A stretch of DNA of 62,898 bases, filler included, from Globobulimina sp. (lineage: Eukaryota): assembly GCA_003354225.1 (NCBI GenBank). It is 36 parts of 36 records of this genome, joined end to end, with 100 filler letters (N's around TTAATTAATTAA, not from the genome) between each part and the next. Parts side by side here need not be neighbours in the genome. Positions count along the whole stretch, not along the records: positions 35,011 to 36,660 come from PIVH01013622.1; 35 more parts are not named here. One strand, given 5' to 3'. The position numbers and the translations under genes are program-made. The notes beneath the pieces are model-generated. The model had not been told where the DNA came from. It was given only the letters and a program-made list of their open reading frames with translations, and did no database searches. Positions 3,403 through 61,149 of this stretch are shown here, in pieces. Each line of letters opens with the position of its first letter. The stretch's first letter is position 1.

Positions 3403-3561
3403 NNNNNNNNNNNNNNNNNNNNNNNNNNNNNNNNNNNNNNNNNNNNTTAATTAATTAANNNNNNNNNNNNNNNNNNNNNNNNNNNNNNNNNNNNNNNNNN
3501 NNTAACTAACACGGAGGTTATTTATCAAAACCCGTCATTTAACTTACCACAATTACCAACC

Positions 3562-4994
3562 ATGTACACCATGTTTCGCAACAAACTCTCAAAATTACAA
3601 TTTGTTCACACCGTCAACGTTGGATCATCCTATGTATTGTCAATGCATTTGTCCACAAAAGAACATTATAACCAAAACCAATTTGACAGAAATACCGTTG
3701 GTGCATTGGATGAATTGGAGAGGACCTTTGTTCGCCCGGCTTACTTTTGTCAAACCTTAAAGCAAAACGATTTTCATTTTTACAGCGGTGTTCCAGATTC
3801 GTTATTAAAAGACTTCTGTGGTTATATCACGGATAATGTGCCCAGCGGCAATCACAAAATGGCCGCCAACGAAGGAGCAGCCATTGGCATCGCCACTGGA
3901 TATTATTTAAACACAGGTAAAAACCCGGTGGTTTATTTCCAAAATTCAGGCTTAGGAAATGCCATAAATCCGTTGTTGTCCCTCGCACATCAAAATGTAT
4001 ACAGTATCCCCATGTTATTAATCATTGGATGGCGCGGCGAAGTCGGTAAAAAAGACGAACCGCAGCATTTAGTGACTGGTCAAATCATGTGCGATATGTT
4101 GAAATTGTTGCAAATCCCTTATGATGTGTTACCAGATTACGAGGAAGGTATACAACATTCTGTGCAGACCGCTGCTCAGTATTTAAGGACAAACCGCTCG
4201 CCGTATGCCTTATTAGTAAGGAAGAGGACCTTTGAAAACTATAAGTTCGTCGGTGCCGAGGTCAGCGATACTTTGTTGTCGCGAAAAGAAGTGCTTGAGC
4301 TCATTGTCGATAATATTCATCCCGACTCTGCCTTCATTTCCACCACAGGTTAAATGTATAGATATATAATTGTGTATAGTATGAGATTTATAAATTATAA
4401 TCGTGTATAATTGTAATTGTATATAATTTAAGAGTTATTTGTAAAATAGGTTTTACATCGCGAGAATTAGATGAAATTCGAGCAGAGTATCAAAAAAAGC
4501 ATAATTGTAAAGACATTAAAGAGTTTCTGACGGTCGGTTCGATGGGCCATGCCAGCTCGATTGCGTTGGGAATGGCATTAGGCTCAAATTGTAATGGCTC
4601 AAATTGTTGTGATACGGTGTGTATTGATGGGGATGGCGCGTGTTTGATGCATATGGGCTCGATGAGTACCATTGGAAACAGCGGGTTGAAGAATTATAAG
4701 CATATTTTGATCAATAATGCTTGCCATGACAGTGTTGGTGGACAGCCTACCAATGCGTGGAAGACTGATTTTGTTTCCATTGCGAAATCGTGTGGCTATA
4801 AAAAAAGTATTTCAGTGTCAACAGAAGAAGAGATTGTTGATGCGATTGCATCGTTGCATGAAGAGGAGGGACCGATGTTTGTTGAAATTGCGACGAATGC
4901 GGGTGCTGCGAAAAATTTATCTCGGCCCAAATCGACTCCTGAACAAAATAAACATGCTTTTATGGTTTTTGTTGAAAAAACAAAAGCAAAATAA
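3562..4994 (+). CDS. ppd: Phosphonopyruvate decarboxylase (fused alpha/beta, TPP-dependent), 2 exons (3562-4348, 4450-4994), about 443 aa
   Basis: Motifs FYSGVPDSLLK, ANEGAAIG, QNSGLGN, GWRGE..DEPQH, GSMGHASSIALG, TPP motif DGDG...NN and HDSVGGQPT; GT-AG intron 4349-4449 restores STTGFTSREL. Confidence 0.9.
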
Positions 4995-10366: not shown

Positions 10367-10508
10367 AATTTATATTTTCTTGTTACTTAATCACACGAAT
10401 CTGTGCNNNNNNNNNNNNNNNNNNNNNNNNNNNNNNNNNNNNNNNNNNNNTTAATTAATTAANNNNNNNNNNNNNNNNNNNNNNNNNNNNNNNNNNNNNN
10501 NNNNNNTA

Positions 10509-10679
10509 GTTGAGACTATTTTAAATTATGGCAACGAAAAAAGTGTAAAAAAACTATTCGAACTAATAGGAATAAAAAAAGTAGCAGAAATATTCTATCT
10601 TCAGACATCACGTCAGAGGGTAAATTATCACCCACGAACAGTTAATTATTTTACTCAGTATTTTAAACGGCATGCATAA
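10509..10679 (+). CDS. Bacterial small protein, putative antitoxin partner of the downstream AbiEii toxin (DUF6922-like), 5'-truncated
   Basis: VETILNYGNEKSVKKLFELIG...NYFTQYFKRHA; its 3' end overlaps the next ORF by 8 nt (ATGCATAA). Confidence 0.6.
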   Translation, partial: VETILNYGNEKSVKKLFELIGIKKVAEIFYLQTSRQRVNYHPRTVNYFTQYFKRHA

Positions 10680-11289
10680 AAACATACTTACAGATAAACA
10701 GATTGCTCTTTTACCTGTGATCCAGAAATTTTCAAAAGAATACTATCTGGCCGGCGGCACAGCAATTGCTTTGTATATAGGGCATCGGAGATCTATCGAT
10801 TTCGATTTATTTTCAAGTAGTGCTATTAAACGCAAACGTATAAAAACAATTATAGATAAGAGTGGATTCCCTGTTTCTGAAATAATATATGAAGCTTATG
10901 ATCAACTCCATCTAATTGTAAATGACGTCAAACTGACATTTTTTAATTTCCCATACAATGTTAAAAGCGAAAATGATTTTGATGGATTTATAAAACTCCC
11001 ATCTTTAATTGATTTAGCAGCAATGAAAGCTCACGCTTTAGGCGGCCGGGCGAAATGGAAAGATTATGTTGATTTATATTATCTATTAAAGGACCACTTT
11101 AATATAGATGAAATATCATCTAAAGCAAAAATTATCTTTGGAAATTATTTTAATGAAAAATTGTTTCGAGAACAATTGGCATACTTTAAAGACATTGATT
11201 ATCGTGAGTCAATTGAATTTATTATCGATGAAATAGAAGAAGATAAAATCAAAGAATATTTGACTGAAATTTCATTATCCCCCTTTTAG
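10672..11289 (+). CDS. AbiEii-family nucleotidyltransferase toxin (type IV TA), bacterial
   Basis: YLAGGTAIAL..GHRRSIDFDLF and AAMKAHAL..R...KDYVDLY motifs; intronless. Confidence 0.85.
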   Translation: MHKNILTDKQIALLPVIQKFSKEYYLAGGTAIALYIGHRRSIDFDLFSSSAIKRKRIKTIIDKSGFPVSEIIYEAYDQLHLIVNDVKLTFFNFPYNVKSENDFDGFIKLPSLIDLAAMKAHALGGRAKWKDYVDLYYLLKDHFNIDEISSKAKIIFGNYFNEKLFREQLAYFKDIDYRESIEFIIDEIEEDKIKEYLTEISLSPF

Positions 11290-11325
11290 AACAGCCATAT
11301 ATTGATCTAAAGAATTATATAACCT

Positions 11326-12153
11326 ATGACCAGATACGCGTTATTTACACATATACTTTTTGCTAATGCTTTGTTTGTATTGGCTTGCGCTATATGCTGG
11401 TTACTGATAAAGCGTGTACGAATAATGGATATCCCCAATATCCGATCTTCTCATGACACTCCTATTCCAAAATGCGGTGGTATCGTAATTGTTGCTACTT
11501 TTCTGATAGGTGTTATGGCGATATATTTTTTTGGTGATGTAACAATGATTAACAAGAAGTATTTTTGGGGATTTGTCCTTTCTTCATTAATGATAGCAGG
11601 ATTTTCCTTTTATGATGATATTTCTGATAAACCATTCATATTCAAATTATTATGCCAAATAGTTGCTGTATTAATTGTTATGAAATTTGGCATTGTAATA
11701 ACTGAATTTTCTCTTCCATGGTTTGGAAAAGTTCAATTAGGCATATGGGGATATATCCTAACATTTTTGTGGATTATCGGTTTAACCAATGCATATAATT
11801 TTATGGATGGATTAAACGGTATGGCAGCAGGACCTGCCGTGATTACCGCTCTTTTTTTATGTATTTTGAGCTTTTATCAGGGAAGTACTTTTGTTTATAT
11901 TATCTGTTATACGATAATATCAGGTGCATTAGGATTTATGGTGTTTAATTTCCCTAATGCAAAATTATTTATGGGGGATGTGGGCAGTGCGTTTTTAGGA
12001 TTTGTTTTTGCTAACCTGGCAATTATTGCATCATTATATGATCATTCACATACTTCTTTTTTTGTTATACCTTTGCTGCTGTTTAATTTTATTTATGATA
12101 CCTCCTTTACGTTTATTCGCCGTTTTTTACGAAAGGAAAATGTCTTTTTTTAA
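11326..12153 (+). CDS. Glycosyltransferase family 4 (WecA/MraY-like polyprenyl-phosphate GlcNAc-1-P transferase), bacterial, 3'-truncated near the contig end
   Basis: RSSH..P.P..GG, YDD, NAYNFMDGLNG and FNFP.AKLFMGDVGS motifs; multiple transmembrane helices. Confidence 0.9.
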   Translation: MTRYALFTHILFANALFVLACAICWLLIKRVRIMDIPNIRSSHDTPIPKCGGIVIVATFLIGVMAIYFFGDVTMINKKYFWGFVLSSLMIAGFSFYDDISDKPFIFKLLCQIVAVLIVMKFGIVITEFSLPWFGKVQLGIWGYILTFLWIIGLTNAYNFMDGLNGMAAGPAVITALFLCILSFYQGSTFVYIICYTIISGALGFMVFNFPNAKLFMGDVGSAFLGFVFANLAIIASLYDHSHTSFFVIPLLLFNFIYDTSFTFIRRFLRKENVFF

Positions 12154-12257
12154 AAAANNNNNNNNNNNNNNNNNNNNNNNNNNNNNNNNNNNNNNNNNNN
12201 NTTAATTAATTAANNNNNNNNNNNNNNNNNNNNNNNNNNNNNNNNNNNNNNNNNNNN

Positions 12258-13845: not shown

Positions 13846-13861
13846 GCTGCTATAGCTCAGC

Positions 13862-13895
<34 letters not shown>

Positions 13896-13908
13896 GGTTC
13901 GATCCCGG
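13846..13908 (+). tRNA. tRNA-Phe(GAA), truncated at the contig end
   Basis: D-arm TAGCTCAGCTGGGAGAGC, anticodon arm TCAGA-CTGAAGA-TCTGA (GAA at 13879-13881), T-loop GGTTCGATCCC. Confidence 0.92.
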
Positions 13909-17410: not shown

Positions 17411-17533
17411 NNNNNNNNNNNNNNNNNNNNNNNNNNNNNNNNNNNNNNNNNNNNTTAATTAATTAANNNNNNNNNNNNNNNNNNNNNNNNNNNNNNNNNN
17501 NNNNNNNNNNTCGCGACCAAAACAAGTTTCTCT

Positions 17534-19160
17534 GTGTACAATTATTTCAATCACTTTATGCATTTCATCACAACAGAATGCGTTTCGGGGTATATGATAT
17601 GTACCGAAAAGCATGAACATACGCGGAAATTGTACAGATTCATTGAGAGATATCAGCATCGAATACGGAAATTGTATAAATACATCAAAATAATAATGGA
17701 TAAATCACTACGTTGGGTCACATTACGAATGCCACAGCATCGGTATCATCCCATTAAAGCTTTCATTGTAGGCAAATTTCCGAAACATATTAGGATTAGA
17801 TTCAAGAAAATACCTTACAATAAAGCGACTATTGAGCAGACAGTTTACAAACAGCTCCATGCTTTTAACAAGAGCCCATCGAAAATCTTAACTCTGTTTG
17901 ACTTCATAGTAAAAAACAATTATGTGGAGAACGACCCTATTTTGCAGCAATCCACTGCCAACAACAAGTACCATATAAAATGGTTCGTCCCGACAGATAA
18001 AAAAGTCCGTGAGATACGTAACCATTGGCAGGGCGTACACAATGATCTGAACATAAACATCCACTCTTTGCACAGAGATAACTGGATCAACAACCAGAAA
18101 AATAATGCGATTGTTTCCCTCAGACAGATATATAAACACGCAATAAACAGATATCACACAAATAATAACACACTCCGAGAATACAAAAATTATATGGTCA
18201 GCAAGGTGATACATGATTATGTCACCAATGAGCGGCACTCCAACACCGATATTCCAGAAATAATCCTTAAATATCCCTTCATGCAAATGTATGCGCCCAA
18301 TGTAGCACCAATAACATCCACTCAAATCCGAATAAAAAACCTAAAAATTGGTTTCCTAAACATCAGCGGCAACGCAAAAACAAAAATAAACCAAATGCAT
18401 CCATATATGCAACAGCTTGTAATGCACCACAAACTGGATATAATCCTCTTAATTGATACCAGAATCATCCATCGCCCCAATTGGAAACTTCCAGGCTATA
18501 AACTATTGATCCACAAAGCGCCCAATTCTACGAACAATCCACGCAATGTAGGAGGTATTCTAATTTACCATAAATATAATCTACGTAATAAACTGCAGTT
18601 ACTTCATAAAACGAGAGGGCATAACACTGCTTGGATTTCAGTCCAAATCCCAAATCAATCCAAACCTTCCTACATTGCCATTAATTATGCCCGGCCATTC
18701 AAGACAAAGCTCGCCGATCGCAGCTATAACTTCTACCAATCATTGACATCTGATATTAACAAATATAAGCAATGTTGCCACTCAATGTATGTCATTGGCG
18801 ATTTCAACGCCAGAATGGGAGCATTGACCATGGATCATAACACAAACGGGCATTATCGATATATGAAGCAAATGTTGGACGACACCGATCTAAAAATAGC
18901 CAATCCGCAATTTGCGCCCAAATTCCTGACGTGTCTAGCCAAGGGAACACAGAATACCGGTGGTTCTATAATAGACTATGTGATAACAGATAAACTTGAA
19001 ACCATACAGACAATGAACGTTGACACGCATCCGATATTTATGGATCACCGGCCAGTTGTTTTCACACTTAACAACATAAAATGTGAAACAAATAATAATG
19101 ATAAACATATGGTGCTACGTACAAATAAACCCAATGATGAACTGACTAAAATCCATGAAA
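17534..19160 (+). mobile_element. Non-LTR retrotransposon ORF with APE-type endonuclease, partial
   Basis: KIGFLNISG, DII.L.DT, GG.LIY, INYARP, IGDFNAR, SIIDYV and DHRPV; intronless and A-rich sense strand. Confidence 0.8.
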
Positions 19161-26405: not shown

Positions 26406-27754
26406 TCAAGAAATTGGATAATTTTTCATTCCCGGACATTGTGCTTGATTCGGTGTAATTTTATCCATCCAACTTTTATACTCTTTCCATTCACATAATC
26501 GGTATTTATTTGTTTTTTGTGATGGACAATATTCGGTGGGCAATGTCAATATTTTCCCATTATAACTAATTTGAAGATAATATTTTTGATTTTGATCCTC
26601 ATACAATTCAATTCCGAGCATACAGGCATATTCCACCCACGTTGTCAATTCCTGTCCAAATGCACCTAACAAAGGACACATTGCATTGCCATCGTGGACG
26701 CCATACAGCCACATTTTATGATAACTGCCATTTCCATTGTTATTGACTGCATATTCCAGTCTGTGATACATTAATCTCAACAAAGGACCAATACGATAAA
26801 TGGTGGAAGTTGTATAATTTGGATAAAAATTAGAATAATTAGCATACCACGCATGGTCAGACTGCAATTCATCCAACAAAGATTGCGTAAAATTGTCTGG
26901 TACTTGATACTGATGACAAGAATAACAATTACCACAATCTCTGATTTGTACGGCAGTGCGGTTTGAGCCATACATAAATGACTTTGCTTCTCCTTGCAAA
27001 GGCTCAGTGATTCTGCTTTGATGTGTTATATATTCTGGCGATGATTTCATATTATTTTGGAGCGTCGCTAAATAGGGACAACATTGATATTTGTTTGAGT
27101 CAATGCATAATCGTCCTGTTCTGTGTTAATATGAATATTATATTTTAATGCAGCGGAAACATTATCAGCCAAATTGGAGTATAATCCCTCAAATAATGCC
27201 ATCACAGATTGTTGAACTCGAAGACTTGAATCAGAATGAATGAATAAGACAGAATTTATATCATCGGAATTCTCAAATGTTGCCGGAATGATATGATAAG
27301 TTTCAATATATCTCGATGACAAACCATATCCATTCGACACTTGTTGTTGAAATCCAATCGATGTTAACTGCCCAGAAAGACAATTGCCAGCAATTATATT
27401 TACATCATTTGCAGTAAGCAGTTGGAAATTGAATGATAATGGATATTGTTTAGAATTCGGACTTGATTCACTCGAATAACGCGTATTTGGCTGAATACCA
27501 ATGGTTTGCGAGCAATTCCAAACAGTTTCATGCTCATTAGAGCTCCAACATTGTTCATTATGAGCTACGGTTCTATCTCCATGGCGGCTCAATATATGTG
27601 ATTGCAACAATTTAAATGATGAATTTGGTGGTGATACAGATTCCCATTCTGCGAAATCTATATTTGGACCGCAAATTCCTTTTAAAATATGGCACTTCAC
27701 CTTTTGTGCAATGATTAACAAACAAATCAACCATAGCTTCAGAAACAGTGCCAT
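26406..27754 (-). CDS. Secreted histidine acid phosphatase with one frameshift near 27095
   Basis: Signal peptide, RHGDRT, GQLT..G..Q, RVQQS and HD motifs; inserting one base restores DYALT.NKYQCCPYL into the second ORF. Confidence 0.85.
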
Positions 27755-30127: not shown

Positions 30128-31145
30128 GTCATCATTGGAATCAACAGGGACTTAAACATCAGGCAATATACAACGATGGGCTTTTTGCCCTGATTTCTGA
30201 GGCAAAGGACCAATTGGATAGTGGCGATGCGCACACTCTTGGGTCAAACCGAAAAGAAAATCAAGTAAATATTTTTTGCCCATTTTTTGGAAACTACCTC
30301 ACATACATTGTTTTGCAGCGACAGACAACGATATTTATTTGCGGCAAATGAATATGGTTATGCAGTGGCAGATAAAGCGTTTGGAAATGCTCAAGCTCAA
30401 CTTGGAACGGACGAACTCAAGAAAGTAAATGAAGCACAGCTTATGTTGGCTAAGCTGGATAAAACGGTTAGTAGAATTATATTTTATACAAAAAGAAAAA
30501 CTGTAGAGTAGTACATACTGTAGAGTGTTATCCAACTTAGCTTTACAGTACACACACATACATGCATGCATGCATGCATGCATGCATACATACATACATA
30601 CATACATACATACATACATACATACATACATACATACATACATACATACATACATACATACAAACAAACAAACAAACAAACAAACAAACAAACAAAGCAA
30701 AGGTTATCTATTGACCTATTTCTTATGTAGGTGAGGGAATTACGTTTTTCATGCTTCAAATTACGTTTTTTCTGGGACAAAAACTCAGATCAATTATAAC
30801 TCTATGTCCACTATTTTGAAAGAACTTTTACAGAAAGTAGGAGTGGATCCCGCTAAATATGGCCTCCACAGTCTGCGAGCTGGCGGAGCATCTCTTGCTG
30901 CTAAGAAAGGGGTCCCCAGGGATTTGATTCAGAGACATGGGAGATGGAGGGATTCGGAATCGTTGCAAACTTACATTAATCCCTCCACTCAAGCTAAATT
31001 CGACATTACTAGACAGATGTTTACTTTAGGTTCAACTACTACCCAATCTACAATGCCCTCTGGACCCCCTAGTACGCTCATGGACAAGCTCCGTCAAGCA
31101 CTCAACCTCAAGACTGCACCCATGATTCTTCGTCCTGATAAATGA
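30128..31145 (+). mobile_element. Degenerate tyrosine-recombinase (DIRS/Ngaro-like) retroelement: gag-like exons plus YR C-terminus
   Basis: YR box II YGLHSLRAGGAS...IQRHGRW....Y (30804-31145); upstream WNQQG..HQAIYN...DRQRYLFAANEYGY resembles DIRS-type gag. Confidence 0.7.
30551..30696. repeat. Compound tetranucleotide microsatellite (CATG)n(CATA)n(CAAA)n inside a putative intron (30467-30730)
   Basis: Directly visible. Confidence 0.97.
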
Positions 31146-35010: not shown

Positions 35011-35649
35011 TATTTCTCCATACTCCCGACCAATCAATACAAACAAGTTACTGTCTTCAATTGGATGTCTCAACAAGTCACCATTCGTTTTTTTGTATTC
35101 GTCCATTATAATTGGTGCTAAAACAAACAAAGAAATTATTTCTGTACTTTCATACAGAAATGTTTACCTAAATCCAGAAAGTAAATAATAGATTGTCGTC
35201 CCCAAATGACACAACCTTCCCGAGTAGGTCTGAGACCAGTTTCAATTTCTGCATCTGGTAAATATACTCTGAAAAAGTGTGATGAAATCAAAAGAAATAA
35301 AGAAAAACTGTTAATTTTACCTAATATGAAGTCCAATTTCCTGACGATAAAAACCAAGATATCCATAATATCCTTCACCAAGATCAAAATATCTGCCAGT
35401 TGGTGTACTTTCATGTTTCTCAAAACAACTTCCAGGTTTGCCTGTTTTCTTGGATGTTTTCGATAATGGTTGATACTTTGTGGAATAATCACCAGTTGAT
35501 GCACTCCTTTTGTTACCATACTGCCTATCTCGATGCACATTGTTGTAGTTGTTTTGTTGTGTAGGTGCTGGTGGTGGAGCAAAAACTCTCAAAGCAGATC
35601 TGGTCCTATATCCACCAGCCGCTTTTGTTTTCGATCTGGTATTGTACAT
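35011..35649 (-). CDS. PC4-like ssDNA-binding protein (probably tandem PC4 domains), 3 exons (35649-35321, 35268-35168, 35117 to contig end)
   Basis: Spliced product reads FDLGEGYYGYLGFYRQEIGLHIRVYLPDAEIETGLRPTREGCVIW; GT-AG introns 35269-35320 (52 nt) and 35118-35167 (50 nt) keep the frame. Confidence 0.7.
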
Positions 35650-35724
35650 GCTAAAATATTTTTATTTAAAAATCGATACATATATACAATACATATAACA
35701 ATAGCCACTGAAGCAGAAAACACA

Positions 35725-35905
35725 GCGCGCGCCTATAGGCGCGCGCGATATCAAAACAAGATAAGGCCGCTTCAGCGGCCTATTTTATTTTTCAGCCACA
35801 TATGTGGCTGAAAAATGCGCGCGCGATCGAAAGAAAAGTTTAAAGTTCCGACTCACATCCCGCGCCCCATGGCGCGGCGGCTACAGGCCGCCGCGCCGGG
35901 GCGCG
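35725..35905. promoter_or_regulatory. Cluster of four palindromes/hairpins between the polB and PC4-like genes
   Basis: 22-bp perfect palindrome 35725-35746; 7-8 bp hairpin 35764-35781; 30-bp perfect palindrome 35787-35816; 19-bp all-GC stem 35861-35905. Function unknown. Confidence 0.6.
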
Positions 35906-35950
35906 TGAAGGGTCAGAAGAACACAATATGTACATGGCTATTATATGGAT

Positions 35951-36660
35951 CTATTCTCCTCCTCCTACACACCAACCCCATGGAAATAAACGATAATTAA
36001 AACGATCAAAATCACAATATACAAATTGTCTCTTAGTCATAGAATATTGAACTTTCTTAAGTGAAGTTTCTAAGTTCTGCAATATTCCTCCTTCTAAGAT
36101 ATTTCTACGAATTTTAGAATCCCTAAGCTTAAGATGCATGGGCTGATTTGGCAATTTGTGTACAGCTGTTAATAAAAGTTGTTTCATTTTGTCAAAACAA
36201 AGTTCGTCTTTGCCATTTTGTGTCAGTCCTTTGAATTTGATTTCCACTGAACCCGAATTCGTTTCGTAGCAGTAGGATTTGTTTCCTGCAAACAAAATTT
36301 TAAATGACTTCACACTATACTCTAAAAAATTTTTTTTACCAAGAACGACCAGCTTTGTAATAAAATCGCCATCATTGAGTTCATTTTTGAGATAACCAAG
36401 GTGATCAGAAGTGGCTACAGGTATGACATCTTTGTAGTGAAAAATAATTGAATCCTACAATTATATTATTGATCATGTTATTACAACGACTATACTAACT
36501 TACAGTATCCAAGTAAGCAACAGAAAATTCAATTGGTTCTATGACTTTCAATAACTTAAGGCGGGCCAATGCAGTTGTCCAACTTGAAATAACAACATTG
36601 GATGTACTGTGCACCACATCGATTAATTCTAAATCCTTTTGGGTTTGCACGAGTAATACA
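35951..36660 (-). mobile_element. C-terminal part of a protein-primed family B DNA polymerase (Polinton/Maverick-like) with two introns
   Basis: SNVVISSWTTALARLKL, AYLDT|DSIIF, LGYLKNEL, G|NKSYCY, KFKGLT, KR and PWGW; introns 36455-36503 (49 nt) and 36286-36339 (54 nt). Confidence 0.85.
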
Positions 36661-56376: not shown

Positions 56377-57092
56377 TTATTTAAAATTATGTTACACGTT
56401 ATTTTTATGTTGAAGAGCATATCCCATACAAGCCTTTGCAGAATCTGGTTGGCGATGTGTTACCCACATTTTACGATCTAGAATTGGTAATCGATATTGT
56501 ATTGGTAACCCATAAGATGTCTCGATATGTATTTTAGATGTACCGATATGTATTTTATATATATAAATCTATATTTTAAAAAAAAAATCAACCAACACAA
56601 AATCTATTTTTTTTGTACATTTTTAAAAAGAAAATCCACTGTTTTTAAAAAATCACCAAATACAAAATGTATATTGTTTTTTACATTTAATGAAACAAAG
56701 ATCACAAAATTCATAGATTTCTTAGCGGTATGCATTTGTTATTTTATTTCTTGTTTCTATTATATAAATGTACTGCATTTTAAGGATATGTTTTTAACCA
56801 CACTTTTACTTATGGTTTCAGAAAGCGTTTTTAAGTTTGCTTAGTGAAGCACTTCAAAAACATTAGTAAGGACAGTTTATGGATGGGGATTTATATACAT
56901 ATATATCCGCGAGATTTATATATATAAAATACATATTGATACATCTGTTCATTTAAAATACATATGGTATCGAGACATCAATAATATTCACTACATAAAA
57001 TGTGGGTAACACATCGCCAACCAGATTCGGCAAAGGCTTGTATGGGATATGCTCTTCAACATAAAAATAACGTGTAACATAATTTTAAATAA
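56377..57092. repeat. Fold-back structure with 97-bp inverted arms (56377-56473 / 56996-57092, 1 mismatch) plus degenerate inner arms
   Basis: Arms aligned by eye; a second imperfect pair lies at about 56516-56570 / 56912-56978. Confidence 0.88.
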
Positions 57093-57651
57093 CGTGTAAA
57101 TAGTCTTTTTTGTTTATAGTTTTTAGTTGGAATTCTCTTGTAGATGAACAAATATATGATTCCTGGATCTGCGAATGTAAATTGGGATCATAATAATCCA
57201 CAAAACTATAGGTTGCAAAAAACTTTGCCCAACCTCCTTGTTGCATAGCAGACCGTAACTCTTGCCCTCTTTTATAAAACCAACTGGCAGAACCACGAAG
57301 TCGTCGACAGACACGATACATAAATCTAATTACGCCTTTGTCTTTTTTGTTTAATAATTCTGCAACTTCACCAACTGTTAAATTTTGATACTCTTCTTGT
57401 TTTTCAAGGTAATGATTGGTGTTGCGTAATATATCCTTTCTTCTCACTAAATTAAATGCCCAAAATGCCCAATATTTATGTTTTTGGAACGGCCAAATAA
57501 ATTTTTTAGGATTATTTGGATCTTTGTGGGCCAAACCAAGTAAATGACGTATGGCTTCTTTATTTGTAACGTCTATTTTTCGATTACTTTTGTTTGTCGG
57601 ATCTGCTTTACCGTTCCAAAATACTTCTGGATGTGTCAATGTATAAATGCA
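57085..57651 (-). mobile_element. Helitron-like Rep/helicase N-terminal region (Helitron_like_N), fragment
   Basis: P..F..GK.D, HLL, F..H....F.A.N...R, LRGS...F....EL.....Q.G....F.T.S..D..DP.LH. Confidence 0.72.
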
Positions 57652-59500: not shown

Positions 59501-60198
59501 GATAACCATTCTTCACCGGCTTTAATTTTTTTCTTATCCAAATCAAATTGTTCAATAAACGTGTTGAATATGACAGTACAATTTTCAGTACATTTGTTAA
59601 AATATGAATTATATCCATCAAGTTCCACGGGGTAAGCGATGACTTTTTGACCCTGAAAACATTGCTTTTCCCCGGTTTTTATAGTGACCCCCTTTGGCGA
59701 AAATCCAAATTCATCAATTTCCTTATTGTTCTTTATCTGCCACATTTTCTTGGAGTATGATTTAATATATTTTTCATAAAGGCGTTCACCGACTGAATTG
59801 ATCCAGTATTCCTCAAAATTGCCGGCTTTTTTATCTTTCGGCCTTTGCTCAAGCTCCCTGCATATTAACTCCTTATCGGGCATCTGCTCTATTTCGTCGG
59901 CGTGAATCGGATATGTATAAAAACAGTGATCCTGATTAACATATGTCAGCGTATGGTGCTTTAACTCCCTCAGCGTAAGAAATCGACTAAAAAAATCCCA
60001 GACAAACATTTCATCCGTATTAATAAGCAAATGGTGTGGACCGTATGTAAAGGGATGACCATGATCAAAATACGTTCGGCATCCGCCGCCCAGACCGTCA
60101 CTTCCTTCAACCAGTGTCACATCAAATCCTTTTTCATTCAACATATATGCAATGGTGCACCCGGCAAAACCGCCCCCAATAACAATTGCAGACTTCAT
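59501..60198 (-). CDS. UDP-galactopyranose mutase-like FAD enzyme, bacterial, 3'-truncated
   Basis: IVIGGGFAG, LGGGC, YGPH, YPIH, VG..LYE.YI..YS.K.W and P...GY; intronless. Confidence 0.8.
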
Positions 60199-60255
60199 AA
60201 ATTCACTTCCTTAGTGATAATAAGTTATATTCCATGATGGAATGATTCTGTTGCA

Positions 60256-61149
60256 TCATTCCGTAAGTGTTACAATGGTGCCTCTAAAATTATTCTTCCG
60301 TAATCTCTGCGTAATCGCATGTTGATGCAAAAAAGCCGTTATTACCACCGTTTGATTATCCGTTACATCAGCATTTCTCGGATTTACAACCGGAACAACC
60401 TGATCTTTGCTATACAAAAAAAGATTCTCAAAGTGCTCTGTATCATCCAATGCGATTTTTATTCGTGGGTTCTCACCCAGAACGCTTAACAATGATACTG
60501 CATGCCATGCAGCGCCATAAAAAAGGACAGGCTCATCTTCTTTCAATAGTTTATGTTTAATGTTATGAAGATGTGCCGATAAACGGTTCCCGAGATTTTT
60601 ATCGCCGCATGGTCTTATTTTCTCTCTATGAATCCGTGTGCCGGAACGTAATATGAACCCCATATCATGTCCCCCCTTGATATCCAGTTCTCCCGCACTT
60701 TCAAGACCGGCCTTTTCAATAAGCTCAATTAAATTACGCCGATAAAAATAGTGCACATGTGCGTTATGGAAATCAATAAAGGCATTATGGTTTTCGATAT
60801 AGGACGCATTGGGTACTTCGATATACAGACACCCCTTTGGATTCAAAGCCTTTTTCATGTCCATAAGTAGCTCAAGGGGGTCTGAGACATGTTCGAGGAC
60901 CTGACGGCAGATAACTAAATCCGCTTTTTGACGGATGCGCCTCACAGAAAAGCCCTCATTAACCAGTGTTATATTGGGTTCCGGCACCATTTCCGGAAGG
61001 AGCGCAGGATTTGGCTCAAATACCTGTACCGATCGTGCGTATTGCGCCAAAGCTCTGGCAAAGTAACCACTCCCTGCCCCGACTTCAATTACATCCTTAT
61101 CAGCAATACGGTCCAATCCGATCCATTCGAGTATGCTTCCTAAGAACTG
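60256..61149 (-). CDS. Class I SAM methyltransferase (sugar C-methyltransferase-like), bacterial, 5'-truncated
   Basis: VIEVGAGSG, DLVICRQVLEHV.DP, L.P.G.LYIEVPN, H.HYF and C-terminal FYGA. Confidence 0.85.
   Translation of the reverse strand, partial: QFLGSILEWIGLDRIADKDVIEVGAGSGYFARALAQYARSVQVFEPNPALLPEMVPEPNITLVNEGFSVRRIRQKADLVICRQVLEHVSDPLELLMDMKKALNPKGCLYIEVPNASYIENHNAFIDFHNAHVHYFYRRNLIELIEKAGLESAGELDIKGGHDMGFILRSGTRIHREKIRPCGDKNLGNRLSAHLHNIKHKLLKEDEPVLFYGAAWHAVSLLSVLGENPRIKIALDDTEHFENLFLYSKDQVVPVVNPRNADVTDNQTVVITAFLHQHAITQRLRKNNFRGTIVTLTE

Follow-up and report, generated by a model that had tools for sequence, protein, structure and literature searches.

A PC4-like gene candidate beside a protein-primed DNA polymerase on an intron-bearing contig of a Globobulimina assembly

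The contig and its two genes

The window, i.e., the whole stretch of 62,898 nucleotides which was analysed (Globobulimina sp., GenBank assembly GCA_003354225.1), is made up of 36 unrelated contigs of about 1650 nt each, joined by N-padded linkers, and only the contig at positions 35011–36660 provides the context of the gene described here, ORF2. On its minus strand this contig (1650 nt) carries the C-terminus of a protein-primed DNA polymerase (pPolB), a spacer, and then ORF2 in the same orientation (Table 1). A preliminary description of this DNA had placed the gene downstream of and co-oriented with the polymerase, and its start is indeed found 301 nt past the pPolB stop codon.

Table 1. Features of the contig at positions 35011–36660 of the window, in the order of the minus strand.
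Feature	Position	Strand	Remarks
pPolB upstream exon	36504..36660	(-)	cut by contig start; matches P0006
pPolB intron	36455..36503	(-)	49 nt, interrupts YxDTDS motif
pPolB middle exon	36340..36454	(-)	second half of YxDTDS motif onward
pPolB intron	36286..36339	(-)	54 nt, in frame; P0001, P0004 and P0005 differ at the site
pPolB last exon with stop codon	35951..36285	(-)	P0001 at 85–87% identity; weaker matches to pPolB fragments
Spacer	35650..35950		301 nt, 47% GC, 27 CpG, four GC-rich inverted repeats
Spacer inverted repeats	35863–35905, 35787–35816, 35753–35792, 35725–35746		GC-rich
ORF2 exon 1	35321..35649	(-)	ATG, basic disordered N-terminus of about 84 residues, three predicted beta-strands (residues 85–109)
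ORF2 intron 1	35269..35320	(-)	52 nt, GT-AG, phase 2
ORF2 exon 2	35168..35268	(-)	loop, PT-R-x-G motif, fourth strand, start of amphipathic helix
ORF2 intron 2	35118..35167	(-)	50 nt, GT-AG, phase 1
ORF2 exon 3	35011..35117	(-)	helix end and about 26 further residues; cut by contig end, stop-less
Putative PC4-like unit	35089..35388	(-)	codons 88 to about 153; both introns inside

From its sequence, the neighbour of ORF2 is a pPolB of the Polinton/Maverick type; the features of such a protein-primed polymerase were found over about 200 C-terminal codons only. It contains the YxDTDS, LG and KxY motifs and is closest to Maverick-type fragments; the integrase, capsid and ATPase genes and the terminal inverted repeats of Polintons (polintoviruses, adintoviruses) are not on the 1650-nt contig. 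The first exon showed 38% identity to P0006 over 42 amino acids (E 2e-8), and P0006 in turn matches PF03175 at an E-value of 2.5e-5, just under the cut-off. The same upstream exon matched a DNA polymerase of PHROG at E 0.01. A phmmer search with pPolB gave nine matches at E<=0.001, consisting of P0001 (85% identity), an unrelated repeat protein and seven weaker matches to pPolB-like fragments. A match of Fer4_ETF_QO on a polymerase exon was below the cut-off and was rejected. Two diverged polymerase-like pieces, which match 36134–36187 and 36607–36660 with 8 and 5 differences in 54 nt (85–91% alike), were present in run X1, and several related elements should thus occur in the sample.

Four GT-AG segments of 49, 54, 52 and 50 nt can be recognised, the removal of which restores the reading frames or takes out an insertion; the earlier statement that all introns of this contig are 49–54 nt long (pPolB 49 and 54, ORF2 52 and 50) was thereby confirmed. 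They contain 76–78% AT, the exons 34–39% GC, and all four start with GTAA and have TT at positions -6/-5 of the acceptor; both ORF2 introns combine GTAA donors with YAG acceptors. The pattern GTAA...TTnYAG with a length of 45–58 nt, which was formulated post hoc, finds exactly these four on the minus strand of the contig and none on the plus strand. With this post hoc pattern, four candidates were reached in two of 2000 dinucleotide shuffles, and also on one of 71 other contig strands. The frame breaks persist under the ciliate code 6, which was therefore discarded. At the 54-nt intron of the polymerase, the similarity of P0001 breaks off exactly upstream of the acceptor; P0004 and P0005 carry in-frame insertions there. 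This suggests that the position of the intron is old and shared, since three other fragments are concerned, two of them only 30–40% identical. In an independent marine metagenome (run X2) a contig was identical over 328 nt except for a 2-nt deletion at 36329, inside the 54-nt intron; this evidence is weak, as it consists of one contig with a depth of 2.2, and the deletion lies in a homopolymer.

ORF2 begins with an ATG at position 35649 of the minus strand. Its three exons make up an open frame of 179 codons which reaches the contig end at 35011, and the two tiny GT-AG introns (52 and 50 nt) of the preliminary description were borne out in the sequence. If intron 2 is left in, a stop codon follows within 14 codons. 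Of 43 GT-AG candidates for this intron, ten leave no stop before the contig ends, and the PC4 score (see below) is higher for two others; we would prefer the intron given in Table 1 for its donor, acceptor, size and open frame, a choice independent of the PC4 score. The matching contigs of the runs are all unspliced. The first 84 residues contain 16 K/R, 4 D/E and 19 S/T, and the AlphaFold model of exon 1 shows no structure there; composition and model thus agree with the basic disordered N-terminus which had been described. ORF2 is a real gene with predicted introns, which would be removed by splicing.

Among 2 candidates, one cluster of relatives of ORF2 was obtained: P0010/P0011, whose ENA contigs measure 716 and 616 nt. 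They have the same start and N-terminal motif as exon 1, and at the end of the exon 23 of 25 and 40 of 46 terminal residues are identical; in the linker only 6 of 39 columns are. The alignment of P0010 with exon 1 showed 64% identity. P0010 and P0011 end at the same Arg as the unspliced ORF of the window, i.e., at the Arg of exon 1, as would be expected if the same donor follows. By these comparisons, exon 1 is conserved at the protein level where the putative PC4-like fold lies, the linker excepted. Protein searches yielded no relative covering exons 2 and 3; a word-based protein search, which is weak evidence, gave no longer relatives of the polymerase or ORF2, and locus searches of IMG/VR and of JGI metagenomes gave no relatives of either. 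AT-rich DNA produces many GT-AG pairs (245 candidates of 35–90 nt on the minus strand of the contig), and one could suspect an artefact without a gene, or frame shifts due to the decay of a dead copy. Such an explanation is highly improbable, considering the conservation of exon 1 in P0010/P0011 with the same end point, the AT content of the removed pieces compared to that of the exons, the common splice signals, and the recurrence of the polymerase intron site in three other proteins.

Spacer, linkage and host of the element

Single-strand folding of the spacer gave a z-value of -9.3, and none of 200 shuffles was as stable. Its repeats include two perfect palindromes (30 and 22 nt), the shorter occurring only once in the window, and recurrent GCGCGCGC words. 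Rfam contained nothing that matched the spacer at gathering score, and five matches far below the gathering scores were dismissed as chance hairpin matches. A sigma-70 scan remained at chance level, and no terminal-repeat signature was seen by eye. The spacer may contain a promoter, a 3'-end signal or a binding site. A TTTTAG resembling an acceptor is found at 35651–35668 (minus strand), separated by one base from the ATG of ORF2; about 12 nt upstream of it is an AATAAA, and a second AATAAA is located near 35790. This TTTTAG could belong to a 5'-UTR intron, or be a trans-splice site behind a polyadenylation signal.

Run X1 (Logan contigs), the probable source run, covers 35121–35862 and 35998–36660. 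The gap at 35863–35997 opens exactly at the strongest hairpin, and the contigs on both sides of it are of similar depth, about 4 to 6. Since the X1 contigs do not span the gap, it is the assembly in the window alone which links the polymerase to ORF2. X1 shares its sample with runs X3 and X4, in which only short, chance-like matches occurred; absence is not proven by this. One X1 contig (depth 2.4) differs by a single letter at 35367, which is a likely error. No relative with both polymerase and ORF2 on one contig was found by protein searches and searches of IMG/VR and JGI metagenomes. Of two IMG/VR searches for pPolB motifs one gave 0 loci and the other 7, two of them in frame and none with PC4, numbers which are too few to judge; conversely, a Polinton-type pPolB C-terminus was present in the flanks of none of the PC4 loci L028–L116.

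The PC4-like gene might thus be thought to lie outside the element, either as a diverged host paralogue flanking an insertion or as a chimera of assembly or amplification at the hairpin. This would fit the unbridged stretch starting at the strongest hairpin and the finding of P0001 and P0010 on separate contigs (656 and 716 nt). Extra host copies do exist in some animals: the main text of PMC9223095 gives 5 to 18 PC4 genes for bivalves, some of them intronless, and a protein of 212 amino acids with 12–14 predicted strands. We consider an origin outside the element improbable nevertheless, because both genes have introns of the same size, the same style of splice sites and a similar GC content, the X1 contigs flanking the gap are alike in depth, the spacer showed no sign of a terminal repeat to the eye, and the protein, whose exons are without a PF02229 match, is much further diverged than one would expect of a Sub1 orthologue.

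The introns of host-like genes in the window, as judged from the reading frames, measure about 76, 101, 155–201, 176 and 290 nt, and two are ambiguous (57 or 75, and 53 or 59 nt). The preliminary description had put the introns of the contig just below a host range of 59–290 nt; this is roughly right, although the separation is not sharp. All four introns of the element, and one of seven host-like introns inferred from the frame, have TT at -6/-5 of the acceptor (post hoc Fisher test, p 0.015). Because of this acceptor style and the mostly longer host-like introns, a different eukaryote with small introns in the sample may be the source of the contig; the style of the introns suggests a host of the element which differs from the foraminiferan-like bulk. 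It is reminiscent of the introns of nematodes.

The remaining contigs contain mostly AT-rich, protist-type genes, which we take to be foraminiferan-like. Two contigs at 10507–12157 and 59501–61149 look bacterial and point to a mixed assembly; their gene pairs are an AbiEii-type nucleotidyltransferase with a glycosyltransferase of family 4, and a UDP-galactopyranose mutase-like gene with a methyltransferase. Fragments of other mobile elements are present as well (a Helitron-like N domain, a non-LTR endonuclease and a tyrosine recombinase; 57088–57651 (-), 17513–19159 (+) and 30735–31142 (+)). A spliced eukaryotic gene for a TPP enzyme occupies 3505–4991 (+), with Pfam TPP_enzyme_N and TPP_enzyme_C; it resembles a phosphonopyruvate decarboxylase and would then hint at phosphonate synthesis by the host. 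The gene of a histidine phosphatase contains a frame change at 26980–27200 (-), where no GT-AG candidate of 40–300 nt was found under the filter used, and a frameshift or an assembly error is possible. A tRNA-like sequence, recognised by eye, extends from about 13850 to 13908 (+) up to a contig end, behind a dihydrouridine synthase gene.

Similarity of ORF2 to PC4/Sub1 proteins

The separate exons of ORF2 gave no matches in Pfam, PHROGs, a PDB sequence search or phage tblastn. PF02229 (cut-off of 25 bits) was matched by no single exon and not by P0010; the domain is split over three exons. ESM Atlas was blank with the whole of exon 1, and Foldseek with the model of exon 1, a 25-residue meander of low confidence, gave nothing at E<=0.001.

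Four profiles were used for comparison. Profile A was made from nine viral proteins with the DIR pattern and two of the T5 type. Profile B consisted of 18 representatives including the set found with an HIR pattern derived from the window, and its scores are circular. Profile C contained 18 bacterial proteins chosen by Pfam alone, without use of the window, and profile D was the sum of A and C. For profile C, PF02229 was matched in 17 of 401 genomes; 18 of 19 matches were over the cut-off and were used, and the one below was dropped. A locus from a scan of genome contigs, which had served as a centre for the search for profile C, was without a PF02229 match. All of nine sampled proteins of the fetched sets passed the PF02229 cut-off, and a profile A4 retrieved T5 4bg7, human PC4, BPSL1147 and MoSub1 from the PDB.

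The exon model was scored with the natural Arg kept, which is also read by the unspliced frame and by P0010, and with X for the next codon. Profile A then gave 4.8 bits, a value reached by 10 of 5000 shuffles; the corresponding figures were 1.4 bits (122 of 5000) for C, 2.7 bits (46 of 5000) for D and 14.4 bits (0 of 5000) for the circular profile B. In hhalign, as many as 6 (A), 2 (C), 6 (D) and 0 (B) of 150 shuffles each were as good. When X was put on this invariant Arg, the scores with A, C and D were no longer significant (298, 986 and 963 of 5000 shuffles), that with the circular B being reached by 3 of 5000; in hhalign the non-circular profiles then gave 69, 39 and 87 of 300 shuffles. 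The best probability in hhalign was 45%, obtained only with the circular profile B. Among 34 alternative excisions, intron 1 ranked first with profile B and second with A, and it was outside the top five with C or D. The pattern HIR...PT[KR]xG derived from the window selected 120 loci in IMG/VR, of which 107 matched profile A (E<1e-3). Those 107, among the loci L037–L156, represent a large set of marine phage PC4 proteins in which His replaces the Asp of the DIR motif.

With residues 66–110 of P0010, ESM Atlas listed a PC4 cluster (28% of 137 members, score 0.79) in third place, after two clusters without a name. No other cluster bearing a family was shown, and the ten best matches with a family all belonged to that family or clan. 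On the tool's own scale this result is a lead, for a family which had been named beforehand, and about one third of shuffled proteins also obtain ten matches from one family. AlphaFold predicted strands in exon 1 at residues 85–91, 94–101 and 104–109 (pLDDT 58–72) and, in exon 3 folded apart, a short helix at the start with low confidence. The helical hydrophobic moment is about 0.9 across residues 132–161.

The conserved motifs [DH]IR and P-[TG]-[KR]-x-G are present in this order as H108-I109-R110 and P124-T125-R126-E127-G128, and ORF2 has all the residues which are invariant or nearly so in A4 (I, R, P, T, G), in sequence and with the right spacing, except for a two-residue insertion in the loop. 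Aligned by eye with human PC4, ORF2 is gapless from Y71 to R86 and has two additional residues ahead of the fourth strand; 10 of 35 residues of the core are identical (about 29%, by eye). The human residues F77, R86, K97, P98, R100 and G102 correspond to Y101, R110, R123, P124, R126 and G128. Equivalents of I85 and Y88 are kept, D84 is His, W89 is Leu113, and R70, R75 and K101 are Tyr, Gly and Glu; Glu or Asp at the position of K101 is common in the phage PC4 set. A passage of PMC4350104 names the DNA-contacting residues of human PC4 and states that the exchange W89A abolishes binding of ssDNA. Tyr 94 and 97, which are conserved in P0010, could substitute for the stacking by W89.

ORF2 probably carries a fold of the PC4/Sub1 type, for which there are several weak, agreeing lines of evidence and no single strong match. 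The earlier designation of the gene as PC4-like therefore holds as far as weak profile scores, the Atlas lead, the register of residues and the predicted strands followed by a helix are concerned, but not for library matches of the separate exons. A real element gene of another kind, with a basic arm and a small beta-meander from a different family (e.g., a core or DNA-condensing protein) and PC4 motifs by chance, is distinctly unlikely. It would account for the blank library searches with the exons, for non-circular scores of 1.4 to 4.8 bits which vanish when one residue is masked, for one-family Atlas matches being common with shuffled proteins, and for the non-aromatic residue at the W89 position; it would leave to coincidence that four profiles, the Atlas lead and the order of four strands and a helix agree on a family named in advance, and that the A4 columns are complete, ordered and, apart from the insertion, correctly spaced.

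A second PC4 repeat starting at the contig end, which had been suggested before, was not supported: the comparison of the tail with the first unit was no better than that of 4746 of 5000 shuffles, only about 19 residues are available, and the AlphaFold model of exon 3 shows nothing but its short helix. Since a lone PC4 unit must pair, according to a passage of PMC7549692, and since the gene is cut by the contig end, a second unit is still conceivable. As an ordinary Sub1 orthologue ORF2 would appear far too diverged, with its low identity to the core of human PC4, no Pfam match on the exons and a pPolB at a distance of 301 nt.

Proposed function and known systems

We think it possible, with a probability of roughly 45%, that the contig represents a fragment of an element of the Polinton/Maverick type with introns and that ORF2 is an element-encoded, strongly diverged protein of the PC4 family which binds single-stranded DNA (an SSB). 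The spliceosomes of the host would process the transcripts of both pPolB and ORF2. The protein would consist of a disordered basic arm and a unit of four strands and a helix, which would pair with a second unit, either on another chain or in a repeat past the contig end. It would bind single-stranded or melted DNA independently of sequence by aromatic and basic residues of the sheet, with the stacking role of W89 taken over by tyrosines 94, 97 and 101 and His108. The arm with its basic residues might add affinity or nuclear import. In this way ORF2 would coat and protect the strand which is displaced by the neighbouring protein-primed polymerase.

The role as an SSB, proposed from the fold and position of ORF2 and by analogy, falls a little short of even odds, a transcription cofactor being the main rival. 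ORF2 would in that case be a PC4-fold protein, likewise borne by the element, which acts mainly in transcription by stabilising melted promoter DNA or as a cofactor of Pol II, like human PC4 and yeast Sub1, and the hairpin-rich spacer would serve as its promoter or target. The architecture is of the eukaryotic type: the domain is preceded by a long basic arm, which is disordered, and by a Lys-rich stretch, which is conserved, features mostly missing from the phage and bacterial PC4 proteins which were fetched. PC4 is also described in PMC7549692 as a cofactor of replication and transcription alike. The host, however, is expected to have its own Sub1, and ORF2 immediately follows the polymerase and is co-oriented with it. 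An SSB is needed for protein-primed strand displacement, according to 10.1101/2021.03.25.437074. We regard a mainly transcriptional function as unlikely; the two roles are mutually compatible.

Among known proteins, the C-terminal domain of human PC4 (SUB1) and fungal Sub1/MoSub1 (PF02229; PDB 1pcf, 4usg, 4bhm) likewise follow a disordered basic N-terminus. ORF2 is in register with strands 2–4 and the helix of human PC4, with equivalents of F77 (as Tyr), I85, R86, Y88, P98, R100 and G102; it differs in its low identity over 35 residues, in the exchanges of W89 and D84, in the loss of R70, R75 and K101 and in its location beside a pPolB. T5.115 of phage T5 (PDB 4bg7) and the viral PC4 proteins of IMG/VR are virus-encoded and linked to replication, and variants with HIR and PT[KR][DE]G are common among them; a passage of PMC7549692 ties the T5 homologue to recombination-dependent replication. 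In contrast to ORF2, these proteins are intronless, have 68–112 amino acids, belong to tailed phages and are without the long basic arm. For the function, the closest counterparts would be p5 of phi29, the SSB of Bam35, P12 of PRD1 and the DBP of adenovirus, element-encoded binders of ssDNA for a strand-displacing pPolB, which is the role proposed for ORF2. Such replicons encode an SSB which stimulates their polymerase, a function shown there and only proposed for ORF2; these SSBs possess divergent OB-like or DBP folds, not PC4 (10.1101/2021.03.25.437074, in part).

Core genes of a nematode Maverick are described as intronless in a section of 10.1101/2022.07.12.499685, and introner-derived introns occur in Polinton-like elements of dinoflagellates, as a passage of PMC12166617 reports. 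We found no report of PC4 together with a Polinton, Maverick or adintovirus in the accessible literature, subscription papers and supplement tables of preprints being mostly beyond reach. By term search, neither PC4 nor SSB appeared in the text of PMC11161782, PMC8502044 with one supplement file, PMC11131425 and 10.64898/2026.10.13.758929, PC4 was absent from a nematode Polinton preprint and a preprint on horizontal transfer of Mavericks, and the main text of PMC9223095 contained no word beginning with "transpos". The parts are known (viral PC4, Polinton-like introns, expanded families of bivalve PC4), and their combination looks new. In invertebrate databases, PC4-annotated proteins may occur near Maverick-like genes.

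Protein-primed polymerases displace a strand. The well-studied systems come with an SSB of their own, but the papers on Polintons and Mavericks which were checked name none. A PC4-like gene right behind a pPolB is a concrete candidate for this SSB; coming from one truncated contig, it is a lead rather than a result. Cut by introns of about 50 nt, both genes are missed entirely by ORF-based screens for viruses and by Pfam scans, and such modules may therefore be under-counted. It is a bolder and rather unlikely idea that an intron-bearing Polinton lineage of a small-intron marine eukaryote has a protein with the PC4 fold, perhaps a single chain with tandem units, which serves as dedicated SSB in its protein-primed replication by strand displacement. 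If true, this would name a missing replication factor of these elements and provide a third structural solution beside the OB-like SSBs and the adenovirus DBP, and part of the additional PC4 paralogues found in marine invertebrates might be derived from such elements.
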